Notes: generated by a model from the letters alone, not told the origin. A stretch of 64,000 nucleotides of DNA from Camelus dromedarius (GCF_036321535.1 NC_087436.1:3906001-3970000), one strand, 5' to 3'. Positions 1 through 49,946 are shown, counted from the first letter of the stretch. Numbers and translations: made by a program.

Positions 1-1339
1 AACTTTGTGTTCCCAACAAGCTAGGTGAAGAACGGCTTTCACACACAATTATCTCTCAGAACTGAGCATGTGGAGAGACGTTCGTTCATCTAGCACAAAG
101 GAACGTGTTGCAGGAGAAACTTTTACTCTGGTTTCTCAGTCTGTTTCCTAGTGCCTGTCTGAAGTTCCTGCAGTTTTCACTGTAAAACCGAGTTGGAGCT
201 AGTACTTCCCCGTATACATGTATGGAGTGGAGTTTGCAACTGAAAAGAAATTTTGTATTCCCAACAAGCTATGTGAAATACGGCTTTCACACACACTTAT
301 CTGTCAGAAATTAGCGTATGGAGAGACATTCGTTCATCTAGCAAAAAGGGAACTGGTTGCAGGAGAAACTTTTACTCTGGTTTCTCAGTCTGTTTCGTAG
401 TTCCGGTTTTAAATTCCTGCACTTTTCACTGTAAAACCGAGTTGGAGCTAGTACCTCCCCATATATATCTATGGAGACGAGTTTGCAAATAAAAAAAACT
501 TTGTGTTCCCAACAAGCTAGATGAAGGACCGCTTTCACACACACATATATCTCAGAACTGAGCATGTGGAGAGACGTTCGTTCATCTATCACAATGGGAA
601 CTGGTTGCAGGAGAAACTTTTACTCTGTTTCCTCAGTATGTTTCCTCGTACCTGTTTGAAAGTCCTGCAGTTTTCACTGTTAAACCGAGTTTGAGTTAGT
701 ACCTCCCCATATATGTGTATGGAGTGGAGTTTGCAACTGAAAAGAATCTTGTGTTCCTAACAAGCTTGGTTAAGGACGGCTTTCACACACACTTATCTCT
801 CAGAACTGAGCATGTGGAGAGACGTTAGTTCATCTAACACAAAGGGACCAGGTGCAGTAGAAACTTTTACTCTGGTTTTTCAGTCTGTTTCCTCGTGCCG
901 GTTTGAAGTACCTGCATTTCTCACTGTAAAACCGATTTGGAGCTAGTTCCTCCCCATATATATGTATGGAGTGAAGTTTGCAACTGAAAATAAACTTTGT
1001 GTTCCCAACAAGCTGTTTGAAGTACGGCTTTCACACACAATTACCTCTCAGAACTGAGCATGTGGAGAGACTTTCGTTCATCTAGCACAAAGGGAACGGG
1101 TTGCAGGAGGAACTTTTACTCTGGTTTCTCAGTCTGTTTCCTAGTGCCGTTTAGAAGTTCCTGCAGTTTTCACTGTAAAACCGAGTTGGAGCTAGTACCT
1201 CTCCATATATATGTATGGATTGGAATTTGTAACTTAAAAGAAATTTTGTATTCCCAACAAACTAGATGAAGGAAGGCTTTCACACACACTTATTCCTCAT
1301 AACTGAGCATGAGGAGAGACGTTCGTTCATCTAGCACAA

Positions 1340-4300
1340 AGGGAACTGGTTGCAGGAGAAACTTTTACTCTGGTTTCTCAGTCTGTTTCCTAGTGCCGGT
1401 TTGAAGTTCCTCCAGTTTTCACTGTAAAACGGTGTTGGAGATAGTACCTCCCCGTATATATGTATGGAGTGGACTTGGAAACTGAAAATAAACTTTGTGT
1501 TCCCAACAAGCTAGGTGAAGGAATGCTTTCACACACACTTATTTCTCAGAACTGAGCATGTGGAGAGACTTTCGTTCATCTAGCACAAACTTAAGGGGTT
1601 GCAGGAGAAACTTTAACTCTATTTCCTCAGTCTGTTTCCTAGTGCCGGATTGAAGTTCTTGCAGATATTTCTGTAAAACCGAGTTGGAGCTAGTACCTCC
1701 CCATATATATGTATGGAGTGGAGTTTGCATCTGAAAAGAATCTTTGTGTTCCCAACAAGCTAGTTGAAGAACAGCTTTCACAAACAATTTTTCTCAGAAC
1801 TGAGCATGTGGAGGGACATTCGTTCATCTAGCACAAACTTAACTGGTTGCAGGAGAAACTTTAACTCTATTTACTCAGTCTGTTTCCTAGTGCCGGATTG
1901 AAGTTCTTGCAGATATTTCTGTAAAACCGAGTTGGAGCTAGTACCTCCCCATATATATGTAAGGAGTGGAGTTTGCAACTGGAAAGAAACTTTGTTTTCC
2001 CAACAAGCTAGATGAAGGACGGCTTTCACACACACTTATCTCTCAGAACTGAGCATGTGGAGAGACGTTCGTTCATCTAGCACAAAGGGAACGGTTTGCA
2101 GGGGAACTTTTACTGTGGTATCTCAGTGTGTTTCCTAGTGCCGTTTTGAAGTTCCTGCAGTATTCACTGTTACCGAGTTGGAGCTGGTACCACCCCATAT
2201 ATATGTATGGATTGGAGATTGCAACTGGAAAGAAACTTTGTTTTCCCAACAAGCTAGATGAAGGACGGCTTTCACACACACTTATCTCTCAGAACTGAGC
2301 ATGTGGAGAGACGTTCGTTCATCTAGCAAAAAAGGAACGGGTTGCAGCATAAACATTTACTGTAGTCTCTCAGTCTGTTTCCTATTGCCGGTTTGAAGTT
2401 CCTGCAGTTTTCACTGTAAAACAGATTTGGAGCTAGTACCTCCCCATATATATGTATGGAGAAGGGTTTGGAACAGAAAAGTAACTTTGTGTTCCCAAAA
2501 TCTAGGTGAAGGACGGCTTTCACACACACTTATCTCTCAGAACTGAGCATGTGGAGAGACGTTCGTTCATCTAGCACAAAGGGAACGGTTTGCAGGAGGA
2601 AATATTACTCTGGTTTCTCAGTCTGTTTCCTAGTGCCTGTTTGAAGTTCCTGCAGTTTTCACTGTAAAACCGAGTTGGAGCTAGTACTTCCCCATATATA
2701 TTAATGGAGTGGAGTTTGCAACTGAAAAGAAATTTTGTATTCCCAACAAGTTAGATGAAGGACCGCTTTCACACACACGTATTTCTCAGAACTGAGCATG
2801 TGGAGAGACGTTCGTTCATCTAGCACAGTGGGAACTGGTTGCAGGAGAAACTTTTACTCTGGTTCCTCAGTATGTTTCCTCGTACCGGTTTGAAAGTCCT
2901 GCAGTTTTCACTGTTAAACCGAGTTTGAGTTAGTACCTCCCCATATATGTGTATGGAGTGGAGTTTGCAACTTAAAAGAATCTTTGTGTTCCTAACAAGC
3001 TTGGTTAAGGACGGCTTTCACACACACTTATCTCTCAGAACTGAGCATGTGGAGAGACGTTAGTTCATCTACCACAAAGGGACCAGTTGCAGTAGAAACT
3101 TTTACTCTGGTTTCTCAGTCTGTTTCCTCGTGCCGGTTTGAAGTACCTGCAGTTCTCACTGTAAAACCGAGTTGGAGCTTGTACCTCCCCAAATATATTT
3201 ATGGAGTGGAGTTTGCAACTGAAAAGAAACTATGTGTTCCCAACAAGCTAGTTGAAGGACGGCTTTCACACACACTTATCCCTCAGAAATGAGCATGTGG
3301 AGAGACGTTCGTTCATCTAGCAAAAAGTGAACTGTTTGCAGGAGAAACTTTTCCTCTGGTTTCTGAGACTTTTTCCTAGTGCCGTTTTGAATTTCATGCA
3401 TTTTTCACTGTAAAATCGAGTTGGAGCTAGTACTTCCCCATATATATGTATGTAGTGAATTTTGCACCTGAAAAGATACTTTCTGTTTCCAACAATCAAA
3501 GTGAAGGACGGTTTCACCCACACTGATCTCTCAGAACTGAGCATGTGGAGAGATGTTCGTTCATCTAGCACCAAGGGAACGGGATGCAGGAGAAACTTTT
3601 ACTCTGGTTTCTCCGTCTGTTTCCTAGTGCCGGTTTGAAGTTCCTCCAGTTTTCACTGTAAAACGGGGTTGGAGATAGTACCTCCCCGTATATATGTATG
3701 GTGTGGACTTGGAAACTGAAAATAAACTTTGTGTTCCCAACAAGCTAGGTGAAGGAATGCTTTCACACACACTTATTTCTCAGAACTGAGCATGTGGAGG
3801 GACATTCGTTCATCTAGCACAAACTTAACGGGTTGCAGGAGAAACTTTAACTCTATTACCTCAGTCTGTTTCCTAGTGCCGGATTGAAGTTCTTGCAGAT
3901 ATTTCTGTAAAACCGAGTTGGAGCTAGTACCTCCCCATATATATGTATGGAGTGGAGTTTGCAACTGAAAAGAATCTTTGTGTTCCCAACAAGCTAGTTG
4001 AAGAACAGCTTTCACAAACAATTTTTCTCAGAACTGAGCATGTGGAGGGACATTCGTTCATCTAGCACAAACTTAACGGGTTGCAGGAGAAACTTTAACT
4101 CTATTTACTCAGTCTGTTTCCTAGTGCCGGATTGAAGTTCTTGCAGATATTTCTGTAAAACCGAGTTGGAGCTAGTACCTCCCCATATATATGTAAGGAG
4201 TGGAGTTTGCAACTGGAAAGAAACTTTGTTTTCCCAACAAGCTAGATGAAGAACGGCTTTCACACACACTTATCTCTCAGAACTGAGCATGTGGAGAGAC

Positions 4301-5810
4301 GTTCGTTCATCTAGCACAAAGGGAACGGTTTGCAGGGGAACTTTTACTGTGGTATCACAGTGTGTTTCCTAGTGCCGTTTTGAAGTTCCTGCAGTATTCA
4401 CTGTTACCGAGTTGGAGCTGGTACCACCCCATATATATGTATGGAGAAGGGTTTGGAACAGAAAAGTAACTTTGTGTTCCCAAAATCTAGGTGAAGGACG
4501 GCTTTCACACACACTTATCTCTCAGAACTGAGCATGTGGAGAGACGTTCGTTCATCTAGCACAAAGGGAACGGTTTGCAGGAGGAAATATTACTCTGGTT
4601 TCACAGTCTGTTTCCTAGTGCCTGTTTAAAGTTCCTGCAGTTTTCACTGTAAAACAGAGTTGGAGCTAGTACTTCCCCATATATATTAATGGAGTGGAGT
4701 TTGCAACTGAAAAGAAATTTTGTATTCCCATCAAGCTAGGTGAAGGAAGGCTTTCAAACACAATTATTTCTCAGAACTGAGCATGAGGAGAGACGTTCGT
4801 TCATCTAGCAACAAGGGAACGGGTTGCAGGAGAAACATTTACTCTGGGTTCTCAGTCTGTTTCCTAGTGCCGGTTTGAAGTACCTGCAGTTCTCACTGTA
4901 AAACCGAGTTGGAGCTAGTACCTCCCCATATATATCTATGGAGAGGAGTTTGCAAATAAAAGAAACTTTGTGTTCCCAACAAGCTAGATGAAGGACCGCT
5001 TTCACACACACGTATTTCTCAGAACTGAGCATGTGGAGAGACGTTCGTTCATCTAGAACTGTGGGAACTGGTTGCAGGAGAAACTTTTACCCTGGTTCCT
5101 CAGTATGTTTCCTCGTACCGGTTTGAAAGTCCTGCAGTTTTCACTGTTAAACCGAGTTTGAGTTAGTACCTCCCCATATATGTGTATGGAGTGGAGTTTG
5201 CATCTTAAAAGAATCTTTGTGTTCCTAACAAGCTTGGTTAAGGACGGCTTTCACACATACTTATCTCTCAGAACTGAGCATGTTTAGAGACGTTAGTTCA
5301 TCTACCACAAAGGGACCAGTTGCAGTAGAAACTTTTACTCTGGTTTCTCAGTCTGTTTCCTCGTGCCGGTTTGAAGTACCTGCAGTTCTCACTGTAAAAC
5401 CGAGTTGGAGCTTGTACCTCCCCAAATATATTTATGGAGTGGAGTTTGCAACTGAAAAGAAACTATGTGTTCCCAACAAGCTAGTTGAGGGACGGCTTTC
5501 ACACACACTTATCCCTCAGAAATGAGCATGTGGAGAGACGTTCGTTCATCTAGCACAAAGTGAACTGTTTGCAGGAGAAACTTTTCCTCTGGTTTCTGAG
5601 ACTTTTTCCTAGTGCCGTTTTGAATTTCATGCATTTTTCACTGTAAAATCGAGTTGGAGCTAGTACTTCCCCATATATATGTATGGAGTGAATTTTGCAC
5701 CTGAAAAGATACTTTCTGTTTCCAACAATCAAGGTGAAGGACGGTTTCACACACACTGATCTCTCAGAACTGAGCATGTGGAGAGATGTTCGTTCATCTA
5801 GCACCAAGGG
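1340..5810 (+). repeat. Tandem duplication with a ~2233 bp period (9 monomers), 2 copies
   Basis: Near-identical ORF pairs at 1539/3773 (offset 2234), 3047/5280 and 3317/5550 (offset 2233). Diagnostic monomers appear in the same order (GGAGATAGT, AAACTTAA x2, GGGGAAC, GAAAGTCC, ACCACAAAGGGACC, AAGTGAACT). Confidence 0.9.
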
Positions 5811-5849
5811 AACGGGATGCAGGAGAAACTTTTACTCTGGTTTCTCAGT

Positions 5850-8800
5850 CTGTTTCCTAGTGCCAGTTTGATGATCCTGCAGTTTTCACTGTAAAAGAGT
5901 GTTGGAGCTAGTTCCTCCCCATATATATGTATGGAGTGAAGTTTGCAACTGAAAATAAATTTTCTGTTCCCAACAAGCTGGGTGAAGTACGGCTTTCACA
6001 CACAATTATCTCTCAGAACTGAGCATGTGGAGAGACGTTCATTCATCTAGCAAAAATGGAACGCGTTGCAGGAGAAACTTTTACTCTGGTTTCTCAGTCA
6101 GTTTCCTAGTGCCGCTTTGAAGTTCCTGCAGTTTTCACTGTAAAACCGAGATGGAGCTAGTACCTCCCCTTATATATGTATGGAGTGGAGTTTGCAACTG
6201 AAAAGAAACTTTGTGTTCCCAACAAGCAAAGTGAAGGACGGCTTTCACACACAGTTATCTCTCAGAACTGAGCATGTGGAGAGACGTTCGTTCATCTAGC
6301 ACAAAGGGAAAGGGTTGCAGGGGAAACTTTTACTCGGGATTCTCAGTCTCTTTCCTAGTGCCGGTTTGAAGTTACTGCAGTTTTAACTGTAAAACTGAGT
6401 TGGAGCTAGTACCTCCCCATATATATGTATGGAGTGGATTTTGCAACTGAAAAGAAACTTTGTGTTCCCAAGAAGCTAGGTGAAGGACGGCTTTCACACA
6501 CACTTATCTCTTAGAACTGAGCATGTTAGAGACGTTCGTTCATCTAGCACAAAGGGAACGGGTTGCAGGAGAAACTTTTATTCTGGTTTCTCAGTCTGTT
6601 TAATACTGCCGGATTGATGTTCCTGCAGTTTTCACTGTAAAACCGATTTGGAGCTAGTACCTACCCATATATATATATGGATTGGTGTTTGCAAGTGAAA
6701 AGAAACTTTGTGTTCCCAACAAGCTATGTGAAGGACGGCTTTCACACACACTTATCTCTCAGAACTGAGTATGTGGAGAGACGTTCGTTCATCTAGCTCA
6801 AAGGGAACGGGTTGCAGGAGAAACTTTTACTCTGGTTTCTCAGTCTGTTTCCTAGTGCCTGTTTGAAGTTCCTGCAGTTTTCACTGTAAAACCGATTTGG
6901 AGCTTGTACCTCCCCATATATATGTATGGAGTGGAGTTTGCAAATGAAAAGAAACTTTGTGTTCCGAACAAGTTAAGTGAAGGACGGCTTTCACACACAC
7001 ATATCTCTAAGAACTGAGCATGTGGAGAGACGTTCGTTCATCTAGCACAAAGGGAACGGTTTGCAGGAGAAATTTTTACTCTGATTTCTCTGTCTGTTTC
7101 CTACTGCCGGTGAAGTTCCTGCAGTTTTCACTGTAAAACTGAGTTGGAGCTAGTACCTCCGCATATATAAGTATGGGGTGGAATTTGCAAGTGAAAAGAA
7201 ACTTTGTGTTCCCAACAAGTTAGGTGAAGGACGTCTTTCACACACACTTATTTCTCAGAACTTAGCATGTGGAGAGACGTTCGTTCATCTAGAACAAAGG
7301 GAACGGGTTGCAGGAGAAATTTTACTCTGGTTTCTCAGTCTGTTTCCTGTTGCCGGTTTGATGTTCTTGCAGTTTTCACTGTAAACCGAGTTGGAGCTAG
7401 TACTTCCCCATATATATATATGGATTTGAGTTTGCAACTGAAAAGAAACTTTGTGTTCCCCACAAGCTAGGTGAAGGAAGGCTTTCACTCACACTTAACT
7501 CTCAGAACTGAGCATGTGGAGAGACGTTCATTCATCTAGCAAAAAGGGAACGATTTGCAGGAGAAAATTTTATTCTGGTTTATCAGTCTGTTTCCGAGGC
7601 CCGGTTTGAAGTTCCTGCAGTTTTCACTGTAAACCGAGTTGAAGCTATTTCCTCCCCATATATATGTATGGAGTGGTGTTTGCAACTAAAAAGTAACTTT
7701 GTGTTCCCAACAAGCTAGGTGAAGGACGGCTTTCACACGCAATTATCTCTCAGAACTGAGCATGTGGAGAGACGTTCGTTCATCTAGCACAAAGGGAACG
7801 GGTTGCAGGAGAAACTTTTACTCTGGTTTCTCAGTCTGTTTCCTTGGCCCAGTTTGAAGTTCCTGCAGTTTTCAATGTAAACCGAGTTGGAGCTAGTTCC
7901 TCCCCATATATATGTATGGAGTGGAGTTTGCAACTGTAAAGAAACTTTGTGTTCCCAACAAGCTAGTTTAAGTACGGCTTTCACACACACTTATATCTCA
8001 GAACTGAGCATGTGGAGAGACGTTCGTTCATCTAGCACAAAGGGAACGTGTTGCAGGAGAAACTTTTACTCTGATTTCTCAGTCTGTTTCCTAGTGCCGG
8101 TTTGAAGTTCCTGCAGTTTTCACTATAAAACCGAGTTGGAGCTAGTACCTCCCCATATATATGTATGGAGTGGATTTTGCAACTGAAAAGAAACTTTGTG
8201 TTCCCAACAAGCTAGGTGAAGGACGGCTTTCACACACACTTATCTCTCAGAACTGAGCATGTGGAGAGACTTTCGTTCATCTAGCACAAAGTGAACGGTT
8301 TGCAGGGGAAACTTTTACTCTGGTTTCTCAGTCTCTTTCCTGTTGCCGGTTTGATGTTCCTGCAGTTTTCACTGTAAAACCGAGTTGGAGCTAGTACATC
8401 CCCATATATATGTATGGATTTGAGTTTGCAACTGAAAAGAAACTTTGGGTTCCCAAGAAGCTAGGTGAAGGACGGCTTTCACACACACTTATCTCTCAGA
8501 ACTGAGCATGTGGAGAGAAGTTCGTTCATCTAGCATAAGGGAAAGTGTTGCAGGAGAAAATTTTACTCTGGTTTCTCAATTATTTTCCTAGTGCCGGTTT
8601 GAAGTTCCTGCAGTATTCACTGTAAAACAGAGTTGGATCTAGTACCTCCCCATATATATGTATGGAGTGGAGTTTGCATGTGAAAAGAAACTTTGTGTTC
8701 CCAACAAGCTTTGTGAAGGGCGGCTTTCACACACACTTCTCTTAGAAATGAGCATGTGGAGAGATGTTCGTTCATCCAGCACAAAGGGAACGGGTTGCAG

Positions 8801-11450
8801 GAGAAACTATTACTCTGGTTTCTCAGTCTGTTTCCTAGTGCCGGTTTGAAGTTCCTGCAGTTTTCACTGTAAAACCGAGTTGGAGCTAGTACCTCCCCAT
8901 ATATATGTATGGAGTGGATTTGGCAACTGAAAACAACTTTGTGTTCCCAACAAGGTAGTTGAAGGCGGCTTTCACACACATTTATCTCTCAGAACTAAGC
9001 ATGTGGAGAGACGTTCGTTCATCTAGCACAAAGGGAACGGGTTGCAGGAGAAAATTTTACTCTGGTTTCTCAGTCTGTTTCCTAGTGCCGGTTTGAAGTT
9101 CCTGCAGTTTTCACTGTAAAACCGAGTTGGAGCTAGTACCTCCCCATATATATGTATGGAGTAGAATTTGCAAGTGAAAGAAACTGTGTACTCCAAACAA
9201 GCTAGGTGAATTACGGCTTTCAAAAACACATATCTCTCAGAACTGAGCATGTGGAGAGACGTTCGTTCATCTAGCACAAAGGGAACGGGTTGCAGGAGAA
9301 ACTTTTACTCTGGTTTCTCAGTCTGTTTCCTGTTGCCGGTTTGATGTTCCTGCAGTTTTCACTGTAAATCCGAATTGGTGCTCGTACATCCCCATATAGA
9401 TATATGGATTGGAGTTTGCAACTGAAAAGAAACTTTGTGTTCCCAACAAGCTAGGTGAAGGACGGCTTTCAAACACACTTATCTCTCAGAACTGAGCATG
9501 TGGAGAGACGTTCATTCATCTAGCAAAAAGGGAACGGTTTGAAGGAGAAACTTTTACTCTGGATTCTCAGTCTGTTTATAATGCCGGATTGAAGTTCCTG
9601 CAGTTTTCACTGTAAAACCGATTTGGTGCTACTACATCCTCATATATATCTATGGAGTGTAGTTTGCAACTGAAAGGAAAATTTGTGTTCCCAACAAGCT
9701 AGGTGAAGGACGGCTTTCAGACACACTTATCTCTCAGAACTGAGCATGTGGAGAGACGTTCGTTCATCTAGCACAAAGGGAACGGGTTGCAGGGGAAACT
9801 TTTACTCTGGTTTCTCAATCTTTTTCCTAGTGCCGGTTTGAAGTTCCTGCAGTTTTCACTGTAAAACAAGGTTGGATCTAGTACCTCGCCATAAATATGT
9901 ATGGATTGGAGTTTGCATGTGAAAAGAAACTTTGTGTTCCCAACAAGCTTGGTGAAGTACGGCTTTCACACACACTTATCTCTTAGAAATGAGCATGTGG
10001 AGAGACGTTCGTTCATCTAGCACAAAGGGAACGGGTTGCAGGAGGAACATTTACTCTGTTTTCAAGTCTGTTTCCTAGTGCCGTTTTGAAGTTCCTGCAG
10101 TTTTCACTGTAAAACCGAGTTGGAGCTAGTACCTCCCCATATATCAGTATGGAGTGGAATTTGCAACTGAAAAGAAGCTTTGTGTTCCCATCAAGCTAAG
10201 TGAAGGACGGCTTTAACACACACTTATCTCTTAGGACTGAGCATGTGGAGAGACGTTCGTTCATCAAGCACAAATGGAACGGGTTGCAGGAGAAACTATT
10301 ACTCTGGTTTCTCAGTCTGTTTCCTAGTGCCGGTTTAAAGTTCCTGCAGTTTTCACTGTAAAACCGAGTTGGAGCTAGAACCTCCCAATATATATGTATG
10401 GAGTGGATTTTGCAACTGAAAAGAAACTTTGTGTTCCCAACAAGCTATGTGAAGGTTGGCTTTCACACACACTAATCTCTCAGAACTAAGCATGTGGAGA
10501 GACGTTCTTTCATCTAGCACATAGGGAACGTGTTTCAGGAGAAACTTTTACTCTGGTTTCTCAGTCTGTTTCCTAGTGCCGGTTTGAAGTTCCTGCAGTT
10601 TTCACTGTCAAACAGAGTTGGAGCTAGTACCTCCCCATATATATTTATGGAGTGGATTTTGCAACTGAAAAGAATCTTTGTGTTCCCAAGAAGCTAGATG
10701 AAGGACGGCTTTCACACACACTTATATCTAAGAACTGAGCATGTGGAGAGACGTTCGTTCATCTAGCACAAAGGGAACGGGTTGCAGGAGAAACTTTTAC
10801 TCTGGTTTCTCAGTCTGTTTCCTGTTGACGGTTTGATGTTCCTGCAGTTTTCACTGTAAAACCGATTTGGAGCTAGTACATCCCCATATATATATATGGA
10901 GTGGAGTTTGCAACTGAAAATAAACTTTGTGTTCCCAACAAGCTAGGTGAAGGACGGCTTTCACACACTTTTCTCTCAGAACAGAGCATGAGGAGAGACG
11001 TTCTTTCATCTAGCACAAAAGGAACGGGTTGCAGCATAAAGATATACTGTAGTTTCTCAGTTTGTTTCCTATTTGGTATGAAGTTCCTGCAGTTTTCACT
11101 GTAAAACATATTTGGAGCTAGTTCCTCCCCATATATATGTATGGACTGGAGTTTGCAACTGAAAAGAAACTTTTTGTTCCCAAAAAGCTAGGTGAAGAAC
11201 GGCTTTCACACACACTTATCTCTCAGAACTGAGAACGTGGAGAGACGTTTGTTCATCTAGAACCAAGGGAACGGGTTGCATTAGAAACTTTTACTCTGGT
11301 TTCTCAGTCTGATCCCTAGTGCCGGTTTGATGATGATGCATTTTTCACTCTTAAACCGAGTTGGACATAGAAACACACCATACATATGTATGGAGTGGAG
11401 TTTGCTACTGAAAAGGAGCTTTGTGTTCCCAACAAGCTAGGTGAAAGACG
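5850..11450 (+). repeat. Domain of near-consensus monomers with private mutations and only degenerate higher-order periodicity
   Basis: ORFs here have no near-identical partners elsewhere, and most diagnostic HOR monomers are absent. The variant CCTGTTG(C/A)CGGTTTGATG occurs at 7348, 8341, 9331 and 10823. Confidence 0.7.
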
Positions 11451-14199
11451 GCTTTCACACACACTTATCTCTCAGAACTAAGCATGTGGGGAGACGTTCG
11501 TTCATGTAGCAAAAAGGGAACGGATTGCAGGAGAAACTTTTACTCTGGTTTCTCAGTCTGTTTCTAGTGCCGGTTTGAAGTACCTGCAGTTTTCGCTGTA
11601 AAACAGATTTGGAGCTAGATCCTCCCCATATATATGTATGGAGTGGAGTTTGCAACTGAAAAGTAACTTTGTGTTCCCAACAAGCTATGTGAAGGACGAC
11701 TTTCACACACACTTATCTGTCAGAAATTGGCATATGGAGAGACATTCCTTCATCTAGCACAAACGGAACGGTTTGCAGGATAAACTTTCTCTATGGTTCC
11801 TCAGTCTGTTTTTTAATTCCGGTTTGAAGGTCCTGCAGTTTTCACTGTGAAAACGAGTTGGAGCTAGTACCTCCCCATATATATCTATGGAGAGGAGTTT
11901 GCAAATAAAAGAAACTTTGTGTTCCCAACAAGCTAGATGAAGGACCGCTTTCACACACACATATTTCTCAGAACTGAGCATGTGGAGAGACGTTCGTTCA
12001 TCTAGCACAAAGGGAACTGTTTGCAGGAGAAACTTTTACTCTGGTTCCTCAGTATGTTTCCTCTTACCGGTTTGAAAGTCCTGCAGTTTTCACTGTTACA
12101 CCGAGTTTGAGTTAGTAACTCCCCATATATGTGTATGGAGTGGAATTTGCAACTGAAAAGAATCTTTGTGTTCCTAACAAGCTTGGTTAAGGACGGCTTT
12201 CACACACACTTATCTCTCAGAACTGAGCATGTGGAGAGACGTTAGTTCATCTACCACAAAGGGACCAGTTGCAGGAGAAACTTATACTCTGGTTTCTCAG
12301 TCTGTTTCCTCATGCCGGTTTGAAGTACCTGCAGTTCTCACTGTAAAACCGAGTTGGAGCTTGTACCTCCCCAAATATATTTATGGAGTGGAGTTTGCAA
12401 CTGAAAAGAAACTATGTGTTCCCAACAAGCTAGGTGAAGGACGGCTTTCACACACACTTATCCCTCAGAAATGAGCATGTGGAGAGACGTTCGTTCATCT
12501 AGCACAAAGTGAACTGTTTGCAGGAGAAACTTTTCCTCTGGTTTCTGAGACTTTTTCCTAGTGCCGTTTTGAATTTCATGCATTTTTAACTGTAAAATCG
12601 AGTTGGAGCTAGTACTTCCCCATATATATGTATGGAGTGAATTTTGCACCTGAAAAGATACTTTCTGTTTCCAACAATCTAAGTGAAGGACGGTTTCACA
12701 CACACTGATCTCTCAGAACTGAGCATGTGGAGAGACGTTCGTTCATCTAGCACAAAGGGAACGGGTTGCAGGAGAAACTTTTACTCTGGTTTCTCAGTCT
12801 GTTTCCTAGTGCCGGTTTTACGTTCCTGCAGTTTTCACTGTAAAACAGACTTGGAGCTAGTAACTCCCCATATATATGTTTGGAGTGGATTTTGCAACTG
12901 AAAAAAAACTTTGTGTTCCCAACAAGCAAGATGAAGGACGGCTTTCACACATCCATATTTCTCAGAACTGAGCATGTGGGGAGAAGTTCGTTCATGTAGC
13001 AAAAAGGAACGGGCTGCAGGAGAAACTTTTACTCTGGTTTCTCAGTCTGTTTTCTAGTGCCGGTTTGAAGTTCCTGCAGTTTTCGCTGTAAAACAGAGTT
13101 GGAGCTAGTTCCTCCCCATATATATGTATGGATTGGAGTTTGCTACTGAAAATAAAGTTTGTGTTCCCAACAAGCTAGGTGAAGGACGGCTTTCACACAC
13201 ACTTACCTCTCAGAAATGAGCATGTGGAGAGACGTTCGTTCATCTAGCACAAAGGGAACTGGTTGCAGGAGAAAATTTTACTCTGGTTTCTCAGTCTATT
13301 TTCTAGTGCCTGTTTGAAGTTCCTGCAGTTTTCACTGTAAAACCTAGTTGGAGCTAGTACCTCCCCAAATATATGTATGGATTGGCGTTTGCAACTGAAA
13401 AGAAAATTTGTGTTCCCAAAAAGCTAGTTGAAGTACGGCTTTCACACACAATTATCTCTCAAAACTGACCATATGGAGAGACGTTCGTTCTTCTAGCACA
13501 AAGGAAACGGGTTTCAGGAGAAACTTTTATTCTGGTTGCACAGTCTGTTTCCTAGTGCCGGTTTGATGGTCCTGCAGTTTTCACTGTTAAACCGAGCTGG
13601 AGCTACTACCCCCCAATATAAATGTATGGGGTGGAATTTGCAACTGAAAAGAATCTTTGTGTTCCCAACAAGCTACTTGAAGAACAGCTTTCTCAAACAA
13701 TTATTTCTCAGAACTGAGCATGTGGAGAGACATTCGTTCATCTAGCACAAACTTAATGGGTTGCAGGAGAAACTTTTACTTTGTTTCCTCAGTCTGTTTC
13801 CTAGTGCCGGTTTGAGGTTCCAGCAGATATCTCTGTAAAACCGAGTTGGGGCTATTACCTCCTCATATATATGTATGGATTGGAGTTTGCAACTGAAAAG
13901 AAACATTGTGTTCCCTTCAAGATAGGTGAAGGACGGCTTTCACACACACTTATCACTCAGAACTGAGCATGTGGAGAGACGTTCGTTCATCTAGCACAAA
14001 AGGAACGGATTGCAGCATAAAGTTATACTGTAGTTTCTCAGTTTGTTTCCTTGTACTGGTATGAAGTTCCTGCAGTTCTCACTGTAAAACATATTTTGAG
14101 CTACTACCTCCCCATATATATGTATGGAGAAGGGTTTGGAACAGAAAAGTAACTCTGTGTTCCCAACAAGCTACGTGAAGGACGGCTTTCACACACTTA

Positions 14200-16450
14200 T
14201 CTCTCAGAACAGAGCATGAGGAGAGACGTTCGTTCATCTAGCACAAAAGGAACAGTTGCAGTAGAAACTTTTACTCTGGTTTCTCAGTGTGTTTCCTAGT
14301 GCCGGTTTGAAGTTCCTGCAGTTTTCACTGTAAAACAGACTTGGAGGTAGTATCTCCCCATATATATGTTTCGAGTGGTGTTTGCAACTGAAAAGAAACT
14401 TTGTGTTCCCAACAAGCTAGGTGAAGAACGGCTTTCACACACAATTATCTCTCAGAAATGAGCATGTGGAGAGACGTTCGTTCATCTAGCACAAAGGGAA
14501 CGGGTTGCAGGAGAAACTTTTACTCTGGTTTCTCAGTCTGTTTCCTAGTGCCTGTCTGAAGTTCCTGCAGTTTTCACTGTAAAACCGAGTTGGAGCTAGT
14601 ACTTCCCCGTATACATGTATGGAGTGGAGTTTGCAACTGAAAAGAAATTTTGTATTCCCAACAAGCTATGTGAAATACGGCTTTCACACACACTAATCTG
14701 TCAGAAATTAGCATATGGAGAGACATTCGTTCATCTAGCAAAAAGGGAACTGGTTGCAGGAGAAACTTTTACTCTGGTTTCTCAGACTGTTTCGTAGTTC
14801 CGGTTTTAAATTCCTGCACTTTTCACTGTAAAACCGAGTTGGAACTAGTACCTCCCCATATATATCTATGGAGACGAGTTTGCAAATAAAAGAAACTTTG
14901 TGTTCCCAACAAGCTAGATGAAGGACCGCTTTCACACACACATATTTCTCAGAACTGAGCATGTGGAGAGACGTTCGTTCATCTAGCACAAAGGGAACTG
15001 GTTGCAGGAGAAACTTTTACTCTGTTTTCTCAGTATGTTTCCTCGTACCGGTTTGAAAGTCCTGCAGTTTTCACTGTTAAACCGATTTTGAGTTAGTACC
15101 TCCCCATATATGTGTATGGAGTGGAGTTTGCAACTGAAAAGAATCTTTGTGTTCCTAACAAGCTTGGTTAAGGACGGCTTTCACACACAATTATCTCTCA
15201 GAACTGAGCAAGTGGAGAGACGTTCGTTCATATTGCCCCAAGGGAACGGATTGCAGGAGACACTTTTTCTCTGCTTTCTCAGTCTGTTTCCTAGTGTCGG
15301 TTTGAAGTACCTGCAGTTTTCACTGTAAAACCGAGTTGGAGCTAGTACCTCCCCATATATATGTATGCAATGAAGTTTGCAACTGAAAAGAAACTTTGTG
15401 TTCCCAACAAGCTAGGTGAAGGACGGCTTTAACACACACTTATCTCTCAGAACTGAGCATGTGGAGAGACGTTAGTTCATCTAGCACAAAAGGATCAGTT
15501 GCAGTAGAAACTTTTACTCTGGTTTCTCTGTGTGTTTCCTAGTGCCGGTTTGAAGTTCCTGCAGTTTTCACTGTAAAACAGACTTGGAGATAATACCTCC
15601 CCATATATATGTTTGGAGTGTGGTTTGCAACTGAAAAGAAACTTTGTGTTCCCAACAAGCTAGGTGAAGAACGGCTTTCACACACAATTATCTCTCAGAA
15701 CTGAGCATGTGGAGAGACGTTCGTTCATCTAGCACAAAGGGAACGGGTTGCAGGAGAAACTTTTACTCTGGTTTCTCAGTCTGTTTCCTAGTGCATGTCT
15801 GAAGTTCCTGCAGTTTTCACTGTAAAACCGAGTTGGAGCTAGTACTTCCCCGTATACATGTATGGAGTGGAGTTTGCAACTGAAAAGAAATTTTGTATTC
15901 CCAACAAGCTATGTGAAATACGGCTTTCACACACACTTATCTCTCAGAAATTAGCATATGGAGAGACATTCTTTCATCTAGCAAAAAGGGAACTGGTTGC
16001 AGGAGAAACTTTTACTCTGGTTTCTCAGTCTGTTTCGTAGTTCCGGTTTTAAATTCCTGCACTTTTCACTGTAAAACCGAGTTGGAACTAGTACCTCCCC
16101 ATATATATCTATGGAGACGTGTTTGCAAATAAAAGAAACTTTGTGTTCCCAACAAGCTAGATGAAGGACCGCTTTCACACACACATATTTCTCAGAACTG
16201 AGCATGTGGAGAGACGTTCGTTCATCTAGCACAAAGGGAACTGGTTGCAGGAGAAACTTTTACTCTGTTTCCTCAGTATGTTTCCTCGTACCGGTTTGAA
16301 AGTCCTGCAGTTTTCACTGTTAAACCGATTTTGAGTTAGTACCTCCCCATATATGTGTATGGAGTGGAGTTTGCAACTGAAAAGAATCTTTGTGTTCCTA
16401 ACAAGCTTGGTTAACGACGGCTTTCACACACACATCTCTCAGAACTGAGC
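14200..16450 (+). repeat. Tandem duplication with a 1243 bp period (5 monomers), ~2 copies; a related block lies at 1-800
   Basis: ORF pairs 14615/15858 and 14735/15978 have offset 1243. The same ORFs occur at 218 and 338 (offset 14397 to the first copy). Confidence 0.9.
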
Positions 16451-19400
16451 AAGTGGAGAGACGTTAGTTCATCTACCACAAAGGGACTAGTTGCAGTAGA
16501 AACTTTTACTCTGGTTTCTCAGTCTGTTTCCTCGTGCCGGTTTGAAGTACCTGCAGTTCTCACTGTAAAACAGAGTTGGAGCTTGTACCTCTCCAAATGT
16601 ATTTATGGAGTGGAGTTTGCCACTTAAAAGAAACTATGTGTTCCCAACAAGCTAGGTGAAGGACGGCTTTCACACACACTTATCCCTCAGAAATGAGCAT
16701 GTGGAGAGACGTTCGTTCATCTAGCACAAAGGGAACTGTTTGCAGGAGAAACTTTTCCTCTGGTTTCTGAGACTTTTTCCTAGTGCCGTTTTGAATTACA
16801 TGCATTTTTCACTGTAAAATCGAGTTGGAGCTAGTACTTCCCCATATATATGTATGGAGTGAATTTTGCACCTGAAAAGATACTTTCTGTTTCCAACAAT
16901 CTAAGTGAAGGACGGTTTCACAAACACTGATCTCTCAGAACTGAGCATGTGGAGAGACGTTCGTTCATCTAGCACCAAGGGAACGGGATGCAGGAGAAAC
17001 TTTTACTCTGGTTTCTCAGTCTGTTTCCTAGTGCCTGTTGGATGGTCCTGCAGTTTTCACTGTAAAACAGAGTTGGAGCTAGTTCCTCCCCATATATATG
17101 TATGGAGTGAAGTTTGCAACTGAAAATAAACTTTGTTTTCCCAACAAGCTGTGTGAAGTACGGCTTTCACACACAATTACCTCTCAGAACTGAGCATGTG
17201 GAGAGACATTCGTTCATCTAGCACAAAGGGAACGGGTTGCAGGAGGAACTTTTACTCTGGTTTCTCAGTCTGTTTCCTACTGCCGGTTTGAAGATCCTGC
17301 AGATTTCACTGTAAAACCGAGTTGGAGCTAGTACCACCACATATATAATTATGGAGTGGATTTTGCAACTGAGAACATACTTTCTGTTTTCTACAAGCTA
17401 GGTGAAGTACGTTTTCACACACACTTATCTCTCAGAACTGAGCATGTGGAGAGACGTTGGTTCATCTAGCACCAAGGGAACGGGTTGCAGGAGAAACTTT
17501 TACTCTGGTTTCTGAGCCTTTTTCCTACTGCCGGTTTGAACTTCATGCAGTTTTCACAGTAAAACCGTGTTGGAGCTTGTTCCTCCCCATATATATGTAT
17601 AGAGAATGGTTTGCAACTGAAAAGAAACTTTGTTTTCCCAACAAGCTAGTTGAAGAACGGCGTACACACACACTTATCCCTCAGAACTGATCATGTGGAG
17701 AGACCTTCGTTCATCTAGCACAAAGGGAACGGGTCCCAGGAGAAACTTTTACTCTGTTTTCTCAGTCTGTTTCCTCGTGCCGGTTTGAAGTTCCTGCAGT
17801 TTTCACTGTAAAACAGACTTGGAGCTAGTACCTCCTCATATATATGTTTGGAGTGGAATTGGCAACTGAAAAGAAACTTTGTGTTCCCAACAAGCTAGGT
17901 GAATAACGGCTTTCACACACAATTATCTCACAGAACTCAGCAGGTGGAGAGACGTTCGTTCATCTAGCACAAAGGGAACGGGTTGCTGGGAAACATTTAC
18001 TCTGGTTTCTCAGTCTGTTTCCTAGTGCCTGTTTGAAGTTTCTGCAGTTTTCACTGTACAACCGAGTTTGAGCTAGTACCTCCCCATATATTTTAATGGA
18101 TTGGAGTTTGTAACTTTAAAGGAATTTTGTATTCCCAACAAGCTAGGTGAAGGAAGGCTTTCACACACACTTATTCCTCATAACTGAGCATGAGGAGAGA
18201 CGTTCGTTCACCTAGCACAAAGGGAACTGATTGCAGGAGAAACTTTTACTCTGGTTTCTCAGTCTGTTTCCTAGTGCCGGTTTGAAGTTCCTCCAGTTTT
18301 CACTGTAAAACGGTGTTGGAGATAGTACCTCCCCGTATATATGTATGGAGTGGACTTTGAAACTGAAAATAAACTTTGTGTTCCCAACAAGCTAGGTGAA
18401 GGAATGCTTTCACACACACTTATTTCTCAGAACTGAGCATGTGGAGAGACTTTCGTTCATCTAGCACAAACTTAACGGGTTGCAGGAGAAACTTTAACTC
18501 TATTTCCTCAGTCTGTTTCCTAGTGCCGGATTGAAGTTCTTGTAGATATTTCTGTAAAACCGAGTTGGAGCTAGTACCTCCCCATATATATGTATGGAGT
18601 GGAGTTTGCAACTGAAAAGAATCTTTGTGTTCCCAACAAGCTAGTTGAAGAACAGCTTTCACAAACAATTTTTCTCAGAACTGAGAATGTGGAGAGACGT
18701 TCGTTCATCTAGCACAAAGGGAACGGTTTGCAGGGGAACTTTTACTGTGGTATCTCAGTGTGTTTCCTAGTGCCGTTTTGAAGTTCCTGCAGTATTCACT
18801 GTTAAACCGAGTTGGAGCTGGAACCATCCCATATATATGTATGGATTGGAGATTGCAACTGAAAAGAAACTTTGTTTTCACAACAAGCTAGATGAAGGAC
18901 GGCTTTCACACACACTTATCTCTCAGAACTGAGCATGTGGAGAGACGTTCGTTCATCTAGCAAAAAAGGAACGGGATGCAGCATAAACATTTACTGTAGT
19001 CTCTCAGTCTGTTTCCTATTGCCGGTTTGAAGTTCCTGCAGTTTTCACTGTAAAACAGATTTGGAGCTAGTACCTCCCCATATATATGTATGGAGAAGGG
19101 TTTGGAACAGAAAAGTTATTTTGTGTTCCCAAAATCTAGGTGAAGGACGGCTTTCACACACACTTATCTCTCAGAACTTAGCATGTGGAGAGACGTTCGT
19201 TCATCTAGCACAAAGGGAACGGTTTGCAGGAGGAAATATTACTCTGGTTTCTCAGTCTGTTTCCTAGTGCCGGTTTGAAGTTCCTGCAGTTTTCACTGTA
19301 AAACAGACTTGAAGCTAGTACCTCCCCATATATATGTTTGGAGTGGAGTTTGCAACTGAAAAGAAACTTTGTATTCCCAACAGCCTGGTAAAGAACGGCT

Positions 19401-21375
19401 TTCACACGCAATTATCTCTCAGAACTGAGCATGTGGAGAGACGTTCGTTCATCTAGAACAAAGGGAACAGGTTGCAGGAGAAACTTTTACTCTGGTTTCT
19501 CAGTCTGTTTCCTAGTGCCTGTTTGAAGTTCCTGCAGTTTTCACTGTAAAACCGAGTTGGAGCTAGTACTTCCCCATATATATTAATGGAGTGGAGTTTG
19601 CAACTGAAAAGAAATTTTGTATTCCCAACAAGCTAGGTGAAGGAACGCTTTCACACACAATTATTTCTCAGAACTGAGCATGAGGAGAGACGTTCGTTCA
19701 TCTAGCAACAAGGGAACGGATTGCAGGAGAAACATTTACTCTGGGTTCTCAGTCTGTTTCCTAGTGCCGGTTTGAAGTACCTGCAGTTCTCACTGTAAAA
19801 CCGAGTTGTTGCTAGGACCTCCCCATATATATCTATGGAGAGGAGTTTGCAAATAAAAGAAACTTTGTGTTCCCAACAACCTAGATGAAGGACCGCTTTC
19901 ACACACACATATTTCTCAGAACTGAGCATGTGGAGAGACGTTCTTTCATCTAGCACAAAGGGAACTGGTTGCAGGAGAAACTTTTACCCTGGTTCCTCAG
20001 TATGTTTCCTCGTACAGGTTTGAAAGTCCTGCAGTTTTCACTGTTAAACCGAGTTTGAGTTAGTACCTCCCCATATATGTGTATGGAGTGGAGTTTGCAA
20101 CTTAAAAGAATCTTTGTGTTCCTAACAAGCTTGGTTAAGGACGGCTTTCACACACAATTATCTCTCAGAACTGAGCATGTGGAGAGACGTTAGTTCATCT
20201 ACCACAAAGGGACCAGTTGCAGTAGAAACTTTTACTCTGGTTTCTCAGTCTGTTTCCTCGTGCCGGTTTGAAGTACCTGCAGTTCTCACTGTAAAACCGA
20301 GTTGGAGCTTGTACCTCCCCAAATATATTTATGGAGTGGAGTTTGCAACTGAAAAGAAACTATGTGTTCCCAACAAGCTAGGTGAATAACGGCTTTCACA
20401 CACAATTATCTCACAGAACTCAGCAGGTGGAGAGACGTTCGTTCATCTTGCACAAAGGGAACGGGTTGCAGGGAAACATTTACTCTGGTTTCTCAGTCTG
20501 TTTCCTAGTGCCTGTTTGAAGTTCCTGCAGTTTTCACTGTACAACCGAGTTGGAGCTAGTACCTCCCCATATATTTTAATGGATTGGAGTTTGTAAATTA
20601 AAAGAAATTTTGTATTCCCAACAAGCTAGGTGAAGGAAGGCTTTCACACACACTTATTCCTCATAACTGAGCATGAGAAGAGACGTTCGTTCATCTAGCA
20701 CAAAGGGAACTGGTTGCAGGAGAAACTTTTACTCTGGTTTCTCAGTCTGTTTCCTAGTGCCGGTTTGAAGTTCCTCCAGTTTTCACTGTAAAACGGTGTT
20801 GGAGATAGTACCTCCCCGTATATATGTATGGAGTGGACTTTGAAACTGAAAATAAACTTTGTGTTCCCAACAAGCTAGGAGAAGGAATGCTTTCACACAC
20901 ACTTATTTCTCAGAACTGAGCATGTGGAGAGACTTTCGTTCATCTAGCTCAAACTTAACGGGTTGCAGGAGAAACTTTAACTCTATTTCCTCAGTCTGTT
21001 TCCTAGTGCCGGATTGAAGTTCTTGCAGATATTTCTGTAAAACCGAGTTGGAGCTTGTACCTCCCCATATATATGTATGGAGTGGAGTTTGCAACTGAAA
21101 AGAATCTTTGTGTTCCCAACAAGCTAGTTGAAGAACAGCTTTCACAAACAATTTTTCTCAGAACTGAGCATGTGCAGGGACATTCGTTCATCTAGCACAA
21201 ACTTAAAGGGTTGCAGGAGAAACTTTAACTCTATTTCCTCAGTCTGTTTCCTAGTGCCGGATTGAAGTTCTTGCAGATATTTCTGTAAAACCGAGTTGGA
21301 GCTAGTACCTCCCTATATATATGTATGGAGTGGAGTTTGCAACTGAAAAGAAACTTTGTGTTCCCAACAAGCTAG

Positions 21376-24300
21376 GTGAAGGACGGCTTTCACACACTTA
21401 TCTCTCAGAACAGAGCATGTGGAGAGACGTTCGTTCATCTAGCACAAAGGGAACGGTTTGCAGGGGAACTTTTACTGTGGTATCTCAGTGTGTTTCCTAG
21501 TGCCGTTTTGAAGTTCCTCCAGTATTCACTGTTAAACCGAGTTGGAGCTGGTACCACCCCATATATATGTATGGATTGGAGTTTGCAACTGAAAAGAAAC
21601 TTTGTTTTCCCAACAAGCTAGATGAAGGATGGCTTTCACACAGACTTATCTCTCAGAACTGAGCATGTGGAGAGACGTTCGTTCATCTAGCACAAAAGGA
21701 ACGGGTTGCAGCATAAACATTTACTGTAGTTTCTCAGTCTGTTTCCTATTGCCGGTTTGAAGTTCCTGCAGTTTTCACTGTAAAACAGATTTGGAGCTTG
21801 TACCTCCCCATATATATGTATGGAGAAGGGTTTGGAACAGAAAAGTAACTTTGTGTTCCCAAAATCTAAGTGAAGGACGGCTTTCACACACACTTATCTG
21901 TCAGAAATGAGCACGTGGAGAGATGTTTGTTCATGTAGAACCAAGGGAATGGGTTGCAGGAGGAACTTTTACTCTGGTTTCTCACTCTGTTTCCAAGTGC
22001 CGGTTTGAATTTCCTTCAGTTTTCACACTTAAACCGAGTTGGACCTAGAAACGCAACATATATATGTATGGAGTGGAGTTTGCTACTGAAAAGAAACTTT
22101 GTGTTCCCAACAAGCTAGGTGAAGGACGGCTTTCACACACACTTATCTCTCAGAAATGAGCATGTGGAGAGACTTTCGTTCATGTAGCACAAAGGGAACG
22201 GGTTGCAGGAGAAACTTTTACTCTGCTTTCTCAGTCTGTTACCTAGTGCCTGTTTGATGGTCCTGCCGTTTTCACTGTAAAACAAAGTTGGAGCTAGTCC
22301 CTCCCCATATATATGTATGGAGTGAAGTTTGCAACTGAAAATAAACTTTCTGTTCCCAACAAGGTATGTGAAGTACGGCTTTCACACACACTTACCTCTC
22401 AGAACTGAGCATGTGGAGAGACTTTCGTTCATCTAGCACAAAGGGAACGGTTTGCAGGAGGAAATTTTACTCTGGTTTCTCAGTCTGTTTCCTAGTGCCG
22501 GTTTGAAGTTCCTGCAGTTTTCACAGTAAAACAGACTTGAAGCTAGTACCTCCCCATATATATGTTTGGAGTGGAGTTTGCAACTGAAAAGGAACTTTGT
22601 ATTCCCAACAGCTAGGTAAAGAACGGCTTTCACACACAATTATCTCTCAGAACTGAGCATGTGGAGAGACTTTCGTTCATCTAGCACAAAGGGAACGGGT
22701 TGCATTAGAAAATTTACTCTGGATTCTCAGACTTTTTCCTAGTGCCGGTTTGATTTTTCTGCAGATTTCAATGTAAAATCGAGTTGGAGCTATTACCTCC
22801 CCATATAAATTTATGGAGTGGAGTTTGCAACTGAAAAGAAACTTTGTGTTCCCAACAAGCTAGGTGAAGGAAGGCTTTCACACACATATATCCCTCAGAA
22901 CTGAGCATGTGGAGAGACGTTCGTTCATCTAGCACAAAGGGAACGGGTTGCAGGAGAAACTTTTACTGTGGTTCCTCATTCTGTTTTCTAGTGCCGGGTT
23001 GATGGTCCTGCAGTTTTCAATGTTAAACCGATTTGGAGCTAGTACCTCACCATAGATATGTATGGAGTGGTGTTTGCAACTGAAAACAAACTTTGTGTTC
23101 CCAACAAGCTAGGTGAAGGACGGCTTTCACACACACTTATCTCTCAGAACTGAGCATGTGGAGAGACGATGGTTCATCTAGCACAAAGGGAATGGGTTGC
23201 AGGAGAAACTTATACTCTGGTTTCTGAGACTTTTTCCTAGTGCCGTTTTGAAGTTCATGCAGTTTTCACTGTAAAATCGAGTTTGAGCTACTACTTCCCC
23301 ATATATATGTATGGAGTGAATTTTGCACCTGAAAAGATACTTTCTGTTCCCTAGAATCTAGGTGAAGGACGGTTTCACACACACTGATCTCTCAGAACTG
23401 AGCATGTGGGGAGACGTTCGTTCAGCTAGCACAAAGGGAACGGGATGCTGGAGAAACTTTTACTCTGGTTTCTCAGTCTGTTTCCTAGTGCCTGTTTGAT
23501 GGTCCTGCAGTTTTCACTGTAAAACACTGTTGGAGCTAGTTCCTCCCCATATATATGTATGGAGTGAAGTTTGCAACTGAAAATAAGCTTTGTGTTCCCA
23601 ACAAGCTAGGTGAAGAACGGCTTTCACACACACTTACCTCTCAGAACTGAGCATGTGGAGAGACGTTCGTTCATCTAGCACAAAGGGAACGGGTTGCAGG
23701 AGGAAATTTTACTCTGGTTTCTCAGTCTGTTTCCTAGTGCCGTTTTGCAGTTCCTGCAGTTTTCACTGTATAACCGTGTTGGAGCTAGAACCTCCCGATA
23801 TAAATGTATGGAGTGGAGTTTGCAACTGAAAAGAAACTTTGTGTTCCCAACAAGCTAGGTGAAGGAAGGCTTTCACACACCTTTATCCCTCAGAACTGAG
23901 CATGTGGAGAGACGTTCGTTCATCTAACAAAAAGGGAACGGATTGCAGGAGAAATTTTTACTGTGGTTCCTCTGTCTGTTTTCTAGTGCCGGGTTGATGG
24001 TCCTGCAGATTTCAATGTTAAACCGAGTTGGAGCAAGAACCTACCCATATATATATATGGAGAGGAGTTTGCAACTGAAAAGAAACTTTGTGTTCCCAAC
24101 AAGCTAATTGAAGGACGGCTTTCACACACACATATTTCTCAGAACTGAGCATGTGGAGAGACTTTCGTTCATCTAGCACAAATGGAAAGGGTTGCAGGAG
24201 AAACATTTACTCTGGATTCTCAATCTTTTTCCTAGTGCCGGTTTGAAGTTCATGCAGTTTTCACTGTAAAACCGAGTTGGAGCTAGAACCTACCCATATA

Positions 24301-38800: not shown

Positions 38801-39261
38801 ACTGAGCATGTGGAGAGACTTTCGTTCATCTAGCACAAACTTAACGGGTTGCAGGAGAAACTTTAACTCTATTTCCTCAGTCTGTTTCCTAGTGCCGGAT
38901 TGAAGTTCTTGCAGATATTTCTGTAAAACCGAGTTGGAGCTTGTACCTCCCCATATATATGTATGGAGTGGAGTTTGCAACTGAAAAGAATCTTTGTGTT
39001 CCCAACAAGCTAGTTGAAGAACAGCTTTCACAAACAATTTTTCTCAGAACTGAGCATGTGGAGGGACATTCGTTCATCTAGCACAAACTTAACGGGTTGC
39101 AGGAGAAACTTTAACTCTATTTCCTCAGTCTGTTTCCTAGTGCCAGATTTAAGTTCTTGCAGATATTTCTGTAAAACCGAGTTGGAGCTAGTACCTCCCC
39201 ATATATATGTATGGAGTGGAGTTTGCAACTGAAAAGAAACTTTGTTTTCCCAACAAGCTAG
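29823..39261 (+). repeat. HOR unit variant, 9439 bp (38 monomers)
   Basis: ORF offsets 29350/38789, 29823/39262 and 30134/39573 are all 9439. Confidence 0.85.
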
Positions 39262-49900: not shown

Positions 49901-49946
49901 GTGGAGTTTGCAACTGAAAAGAAACTTTGTGTTCCCAACAAGCTAG
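43983..49946 (+). repeat. HOR unit variant, 5964 bp (24 monomers)
   Basis: Identical ORF pairs 43758/49722, 43910/49874, 43983/49947 and 44294/50258, offset 5964. Confidence 0.9.

Follow-up and report, generated by a model that had tools for sequence, protein, structure and literature searches.

Some satellites have arisen from MITEs or foldback elements, and their monomers frequently contain palindromes, according to the available part of PMC12628747. Among the cases described there, Xstir and miDNA4 of Xenopus and Tetris of Drosophila virilis resemble the camel repeat considered here in carrying an inverted-repeat unit within a tandem monomer, together with an apparent target-site duplication, whereas the camel unit is just 75 nt long, occupies less than one-third of its monomer and has no known dispersed parent. 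At centromeres, Kasinathan and Henikoff (2018) counted short dyads with arms of at least 5 and gaps of at most 20 (PMC5889037, available part), and the consensus of the major satellite of horse, 37cen, lacks a CENP-B box and is mildly enriched in short dyads (PMC11804003, available part).

For camelids, the supplement to Melters 2013 gives a 248-bp repeat in Lama glama (45% GC, 2.9% of the genome) as a candidate for centromere DNA, selected as the tandem repeat of highest abundance; in the available parts of that source (PMC4053949), llama appears in the table only, the centromeric role is assumed from abundance, and the passages on the Lama glama repeat make no mention of a hairpin. The available part of PMC8605555 lists camelid MITE families, not satellites, and that of PMC13751797, which places the camel-llama split at 11-25 million years ago, covers non-centromeric satellites and leaves 248, 249, hairpin and palindrome unmentioned. 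The alpaca satellites of the latter paper were rejected as kin: their units measure 1.8-8.5 kb, and the first 400 letters of each are unlike the 249-bp repeat by eye. No report of a hairpin in the camelid 249-bp satellite was found in the literature searched, which was mostly without subscription papers such as early camelid satellite work. A report on a dromedary centromeric repeat may describe the 249-bp repeat, and so may the VicPac4 paper. Since the repeat has been catalogued before and palindromes are a common feature of satellite monomers, the basic finding is an ordinary one.

The window (the whole 64,000-bp stretch of DNA analysed) is a single, uninterrupted, head-to-tail satellite array (1..64000, + strand) with a period of 249 bp and 257.6 copies by TRF, in which adjacent copies match at 86% and G+C is flat at 41-43%. 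We excised 256 whole monomers, aligned them and derived a majority consensus, to which the monomers are on average 92.6% identical (range 88-97%). They differ from this consensus at a mean of 18.4 positions (at most 14 in 53 of the 256) and from one another at ∼33, and a set of sequences ∼33 differences apart yet 92.6% identical to their consensus indicates radiation from one founder-like sequence. For statistics, monomers at most 12 differences apart were merged into a non-redundant set of 86 representatives.

The llama repeat is collinear with the window consensus over the full monomer, with 14 differences in 249 (∼94%) when compared by eye and a length of 248 rather than 249 bp, and 10 of its 13 substituted letters also occur among the window monomers. 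Both repeats are tandem and very abundant. In 14 of 24 listed sequencing runs, from three organisms, 0.63-0.69 of the sampled words of the camel repeat were present, and between 433,073 and 844,605 contigs, which is not a copy number, matched one monomer in each of three DNA runs; the high word share and the contig counts identify the 249-bp repeat as a major satellite. Judged by its sequence, the camel satellite is the 248-bp candidate centromeric repeat of llama, and one 64-kb window of it need not be an active centromere.

Anatomy and folding of the hairpin

The first-pass annotation had described a 97-bp imperfect palindrome at 11921..12017, and the outer arms, the 5x5 loop, the 10-bp arms and the apical stem of that description were confirmed. 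The monomer that bears this copy (11909..12157, + strand) aligns to the consensus without gaps at 92% identity, its phase being the alignment's own. The 6-bp outer arms lie at 11921..11926 and 12012..12017 on the + strand, and the left one is perfect in 104 of the 256 monomers. Within them, a symmetric 5x5 loop holds a 4-nt direct repeat, ACAA, at 11928..11931 and 12007..12010 (+ strand), a candidate target-site duplication whose two copies are alike in 172 of the 256 monomers. The inner arms, each of 26 nt, occupy 11932..11957 and 11981..12006 on the same strand; each consists of a 10-bp stem (11932-11941 paired with 11997-12006, the latter forming the end of the right arm) and an imperfect extension. 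At the apex, a dyad with 5-bp arms and a 2-nt gap (11967..11978, +) is intact in 173 of the 256 monomers and is 1 of the 10 short dyads of the consensus. Just outside the hairpin, a 7-bp alternative register (11915-11921 with 12006-12012) competes with the outer stem; in the consensus it forms a 9-bp inverted repeat with one wobble.

Folding of the 97-nt copy exceeded that of shuffled sequences, with z values of -5.3 as DNA and -7.5 as RNA and 0 of 200 shuffles as good in either chemistry. This copy is among the best-folding of the array, ranking 11th as DNA and 20th as RNA among the 256 monomers. The 86 non-redundant monomers gave median z values of -2.1 (DNA) and -4.8 (RNA), and at least 7 of the 10 stem pairs formed in 66 of them as DNA and in 80 as RNA. 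Overall, copies fold worse than their consensus, with means of -12.4 versus -17.5 kcal/mol as DNA and -31.5 versus -41.9 kcal/mol as RNA.

The claim that each monomer carries the palindrome holds for a decayed form of it and not for the perfect one: both stems are perfect by Watson-Crick pairing in only 8 of the 256 monomers and intact in 42 when G-T pairs are allowed, and for the 10-bp stem by itself the corresponding counts are 20 and 95. The annotation had also held that a common G allele keeps the 10-bp stem closed as a G-T pair. G is indeed the commonest letter at that site (G 168, T 50, A 36, C 2; n = 256), but the T allele breaks the pair. We also considered whether the A alleles that make the stem perfect mark an ancestral haplotype, and rejected this idea: they do not co-occur, and their carriers are about 30 differences apart versus 32.

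Folding is biased with respect to both chemistry and strand. It is much stronger as RNA and on the + strand, with z values of -7.4 versus -4.6 for the hairpin and -4.2 versus -1.8 for the whole monomer, and the minus strand of the consensus, at z -1.6 as DNA, is near chance. Consensus folding and dyads further outline a second, weaker folding domain (12019..12154, +), with z -2.9 as RNA (4 of 200 shuffles as good) and -3.0 as DNA (1 of 200); its short dyads, placed by way of the consensus and partly broken in the copy described above, fall near 12027-12050, 12086-12101 and 12123-12138. These biases raise the question of whether a structured RNA is made from the + strand now, or was in the past (a centromeric RNA, a small-RNA precursor or a retro-copied hairpin RNA), with the A-rich 5x5 loop as a protein-binding internal loop. 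Besides the folding and the second domain, the confinement of the wobbles to one strand would fit such a transcript, as would the RNA sequencing runs: six of them contain 0.12-0.27 of the sampled words, and in one, 2,196 contigs match monomer 62030-62278. Those contigs show neither strand nor transcription, however, and may be DNA. They carry fewer variant letters than the DNA runs, and the deficit is larger in the hairpin region than outside it (p 0.014), yet it is not stem-specific (stem 0.19 versus loop 0.14, p 0.64); contigs of this run drop rare variants, and its host may differ. The low variant share, no more than a lead, may come from a young subfamily being transcribed, from collapse during assembly or from a different host species.

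Searches for known RNA classes also speak against a structured RNA. Rfam returned only noise (3,001 bases with an E limit of 5, and 581 bases with a limit of 10), ARAGORN found 0 tRNA genes in the whole window, and the best match to a hammerhead core was 5 of 6. A likeness of part of the minus strand to the head of a tRNA-derived SINE was rejected, since 258 of 300 shuffles reached its combined A- and B-box score of 12 of 15, leaving no polymerase III box pair beyond chance. The satellites of newts, schistosomes and cave crickets carry a hammerhead, and in them one monomer strand likewise folds well as RNA; the camel monomer has neither the hammerhead core nor an Rfam match. Together with the absence of covariation described below, and with just three wobbles being independent of the folding program, these results make a structured RNA an improbable source of the hairpin.

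Origin of the inverted repeat

The first-pass annotation had offered, as a second possibility, that the palindrome is the remnant of a foldback or MITE-like ancestor; this proved the best fit to the anatomy and falls short of proof. The 10-bp stems form the ends of the terminal inverted repeats, whose consensus arms are alike in 21 of 27 columns. ACAA directly flanks both ends of the inner 75-nt unit (11932-12006) and lies in the 5x5 loop; if this unit and one ACAA copy were taken out, a hairpin of 6 bp closing a 6-nt loop would remain. The five unpaired positions between two clean stems would thus be accounted for by an insertion that duplicated 4 nt of its target. A flanking direct repeat of at least 4 nt, a feature noticed post hoc, was found for 20 of 2654 shuffled inverted repeats (20 of 1500 shuffles). 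An empty insertion site was not found in the window, where the best match had 5 mismatches in 18, and a metagenome scan with one 21-base pattern gave 0 matches.

The six differences between the consensus arms comprise three transitions, one transversion and two indels, in an array whose Ti/Tv is 0.40. Transition-rich arm differences within a transversion-rich array suggest, from very few events, that decay of the arms preceded amplification. Each of the three arm transitions yields G-T on the + strand, as do all five wobbles of the consensus hairpin, and this one-strand distribution may be due to chance or may point to a past as RNA or as a single strand.

Chance might also be invoked for the hairpin as a whole, as a feature of one founder that amplification multiplied and that needs no special origin. 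All copies do go back to a single independent founder, and the 97-nt window was picked. After correction for the best 97-nt window, the consensus was matched by 7 of 100 shuffles as DNA, and its longest perfect arm, at 7 bp, is ordinary (117 of 150 shuffles). As RNA, by contrast, the consensus was matched by 0 of the 100 scan-corrected shuffles; in the DNA and RNA scans alike, the step was finer for the consensus than for the shuffles, to the advantage of the former. Only 10 of 500 shuffles scored as high when the consensus was aligned as a Watson-Crick-only inverted repeat, and the flanking direct repeat is likewise uncommon in shuffles (20 of 1500). We regard pure chance as very improbable.

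The reading that we favour, and that we consider fairly probable, is that the hairpin is a structural relic of the founder monomer, passively copied with the camelid 249-bp satellite and slowly eroding rather than kept by selection. The first step would have been the insertion of a short element ending in inverted repeats, or of a foldback like it, into a loop closed by a small 6-bp stem, with 4 nt of the target duplicated; the outer stem, the inner arms of 26 nt and the symmetric, A-rich 5x5 loop would all have come about through this one event. The arms would then have diverged, mainly by transitions, before amplification. The monomer would have been amplified to a very abundant satellite before camel and llama split, an order to which the shared repeat points, and its consensus would have barely changed since. 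Finally, as seen within the array, transversion-rich point mutation and local block duplication would have acted on the copies, striking stems as often as loops. This scheme offers a concrete origin, the insertion of an inverted repeat with a 4-nt duplication.

Divergence of stems and loops

If the hairpin were maintained pair by pair, its stems should be conserved or show compensatory change, a test that the first-pass annotation had itself put forward and whose outcome largely refutes maintenance of this kind: we found neither stem-specific conservation nor a compensatory excess. Among the 86 non-redundant monomers, divergence is 0.068 at paired and 0.052 at unpaired sites. Changes on both sides of a pair number 11 versus 13.3 expected, with the pair still formed in 6 versus 6.2 expected, and single changes that break a pair number 309 versus 316 expected. 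Covariation in 60 of the 256 monomers (the copy described above and 59 of the 86 representatives) was no higher than in shuffles (0.049 versus 0.048, 187 of 500 as high), in a set whose power is limited because the monomers radiate from one consensus. RNAalifold did not recover the hairpin from the same 60 monomers, a miss to which we give little weight since the program bars pairs that are broken in more than a few rows. General templated mismatch repair was considered as well and rejected, with 28 events observed versus 32.6 expected.

Recent changes tell the same story. At three cluster thresholds, the per-site numbers of recent differences for stem, loop and the remainder of the monomer were 0.55/0.48/0.45, 0.71/0.74/0.64 and 1.30/1.04/1.07, and these differences strike the three classes alike. 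Letters that break the stem reach 4-23% of the summed contig depth in three DNA runs of three organisms (10 of the 36 rows used, the 36 being 40 of 84 minus 4 in which the minor letter was that of the compared copy). Of the 14 differences of the llama entry, 6 fall within the 97 nt; stems are damaged by four of them, the other two could create extra pairs within the 5x5 loop, and none is compensatory. The two-letter change that the llama entry shows in the left half of this loop recurs in one of the 256 window monomers, at 13904-14014.

Some results point, albeit weakly (p about 0.02-0.03), in the other direction and leave some structural bias possible. In a subset of 29 of the 86 monomers, copies folded slightly better than controls with the variation shuffled between columns that share a base, both as DNA (-12.56 versus -11.37, 11 of 369 as good) and as RNA (-32.06 versus -30.06, 6 of 254 as good). 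Single changes retained the pair in 94 of 403 cases (23%) versus 18% (17 of 1000 shuffles). Both effects stem largely from three variable wobble G sites, at which G-to-A changes that perfect the pair are enriched (p 0.01), as are G-to-T changes (p 0.05). Variation across the 97 nt as a block is lower than elsewhere in the monomer (p about 0.02), and the llama entry is identical to the consensus over the inner 58 nt, which is true of 1 of the 86 window monomers, in a post hoc comparison with an entry that may itself be a consensus. These structure-keeping tests overlap and their p values are uncorrected. Mild regional constraint or local mutation differences fit them better than pair-level selection does. 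Consistent with the relic reading, individual base pairs would not be kept by selection. Per-monomer selection in so large a family would be weak, and a benefit at the level of the array is compatible with the tests.

The substitution spectrum of the array is an observation of separate interest. Relative to the consensus, Ti/Tv is 0.40 (419 to 1044), with values of 0.38-0.43 in recent differences and 0.50 for letters seen once; changes from C:G to A:T and from T:A to A:T lead, and CpG transitions are just about 1.4-1.5 times higher. The DNA runs show the same classes of change, so assembly did not create the spectrum. A Ti/Tv of 0.55 has been reported for active human alpha satellite, with extension to other satellites stated as unknown (preprint PMC13684623, available part). 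The two values are similarly low but not strictly alike, the camel value comparing monomers with a consensus and not orthologous sites. A camel Ti/Tv of about 0.4 bears on whether a transversion-rich spectrum extends beyond active human alpha satellite.

Centromere context and layout of the array

It had been proposed from the sequence that the array could extrude hairpins or cruciforms every 249 bp, in line with the idea that dyad-rich non-B DNA marks centromeres lacking CENP-B boxes. For the 97-bp element the cruciform does not stand up energetically. Conversion to two hairpins costs 93 kcal/mol for the copy described above and 102 kcal/mol for the consensus, junction penalty excluded, versus a supercoil relief of 31-81 kcal/mol from the standard quadratic formula, with 9 turns absorbed in domains of 2-20 kb at superhelix densities of -0.05 to -0.07. 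Because extrusion costs more than supercoiling returns, a full cruciform is unlikely, and folding needs a single strand. On these estimates, folding in single strands only, mainly of the + strand, is plausible; the element would then fold at a replication fork, during repair, in an R-loop or in a + strand transcript.

The centromere context itself was supported: the repeat corresponds to the llama candidate centromeric repeat, lacks a CENP-B core and, in its consensus, appears mildly enriched in short dyads, about 1.9-fold. The CENP-B core had 0 matches within 1 mismatch in the 64 kb, and its best match in the consensus was 6 of 9. By our own count, not that of EMBOSS, the consensus has 10 short dyads at a density of 0.43, compared with 0.23 in shuffles (63 of 2000 as high). 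Camelids thereby join the mammals whose candidate centromeric satellite bears dyads and no CENP-B boxes.

These features would be expected if dyads conferred an advantage on whole arrays. Single-strand hairpins or short cruciforms would favour CENP-A loading where CENP-B boxes are lacking, or would promote amplification through fork stalling and break repair, and single pairs would drift while arrays near the well-folding consensus win. The near identity of the consensus between llama and the camel genome and the weak structure-keeping bias agree with such an advantage, as does the recurrence of the pattern in horse 37cen and in PMC5889037, in the available parts of both papers. However, the mean dyad density of real copies, 0.32, differs from that of shuffles by less than one standard deviation; the main stems are separated by a spacer of 55 nt, whereas the dyad class of PMC5889037 allows gaps of at most 20 nt; and full extrusion is too costly. 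In the available parts of the same two papers, satellite-free equid centromeres show no non-B enrichment (PMC11804003), and the non-centromeric major satellite of mouse has stronger predicted non-B folding than the centromeric minor satellite (PMC5889037), both of which run contrary to the idea. The literature searched yielded no report of CENP-A binding or of in vivo non-B DNA for the camelid repeat. On balance, an array-level advantage appears rather unlikely next to a passively copied relic. If the hairpin were functional, adjacent intact and broken natural copies would make the non-B centromere model directly testable.

A combined and bolder version deserves mention, doubtful as we hold it to be: a captured inverted-repeat element would have founded the main camelid centromeric satellite, and its + strand hairpin, as single-stranded DNA or centromeric RNA, would have made the monomer win and held the consensus almost fixed for more than 11 million years through selection among arrays, not among single copies. 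If true, each monomer of a CENP-B-free centromere in a mammal would carry a single long structure that is defined and can be tested.

In its layout, the window contains near-identical copies in local blocks of 19, 21, 35, 38 and 44 monomers, along with a 4-mer towards its right end, whereas the llama table, in its available part, gives no higher-order repeat. The blocks form a mosaic of recent duplications (22800-63800): a 35-monomer block is duplicated at about 22.8 and 31.5 kb, a 19-monomer block at 39.5 and 44.2 kb and a 21-monomer block, almost every copy of which is identical, at 50.7 and 55.9 kb, with the 4-mer block at about 61.1-63.8 kb. In one sequencing run, 106 contigs diverge behind 62149 (monomer 62030-62278), with a different apical segment and an agreement of 0.66, which hints at a diverged subfamily. 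A PstI site is retained in 167 and an MspI site in 155 of the 256 monomers, and the repeat may be among the restriction-defined camelid satellites of the older literature. There is a weak hint that the monomer (11909-12157) is an ancient dimer of about 124-bp halves, in that 3 of 100 shuffles scored as high in global alignment; by a local test the likeness of the halves was not significant (94 of 200 as high). Positions 5950-14400 hold mainly solitary, older-looking monomers, with a median nearest-neighbour distance of 14-19 differences within the window, and these adjoin the younger homogenised blocks to their right in an arrangement that resembles a layered array edge.
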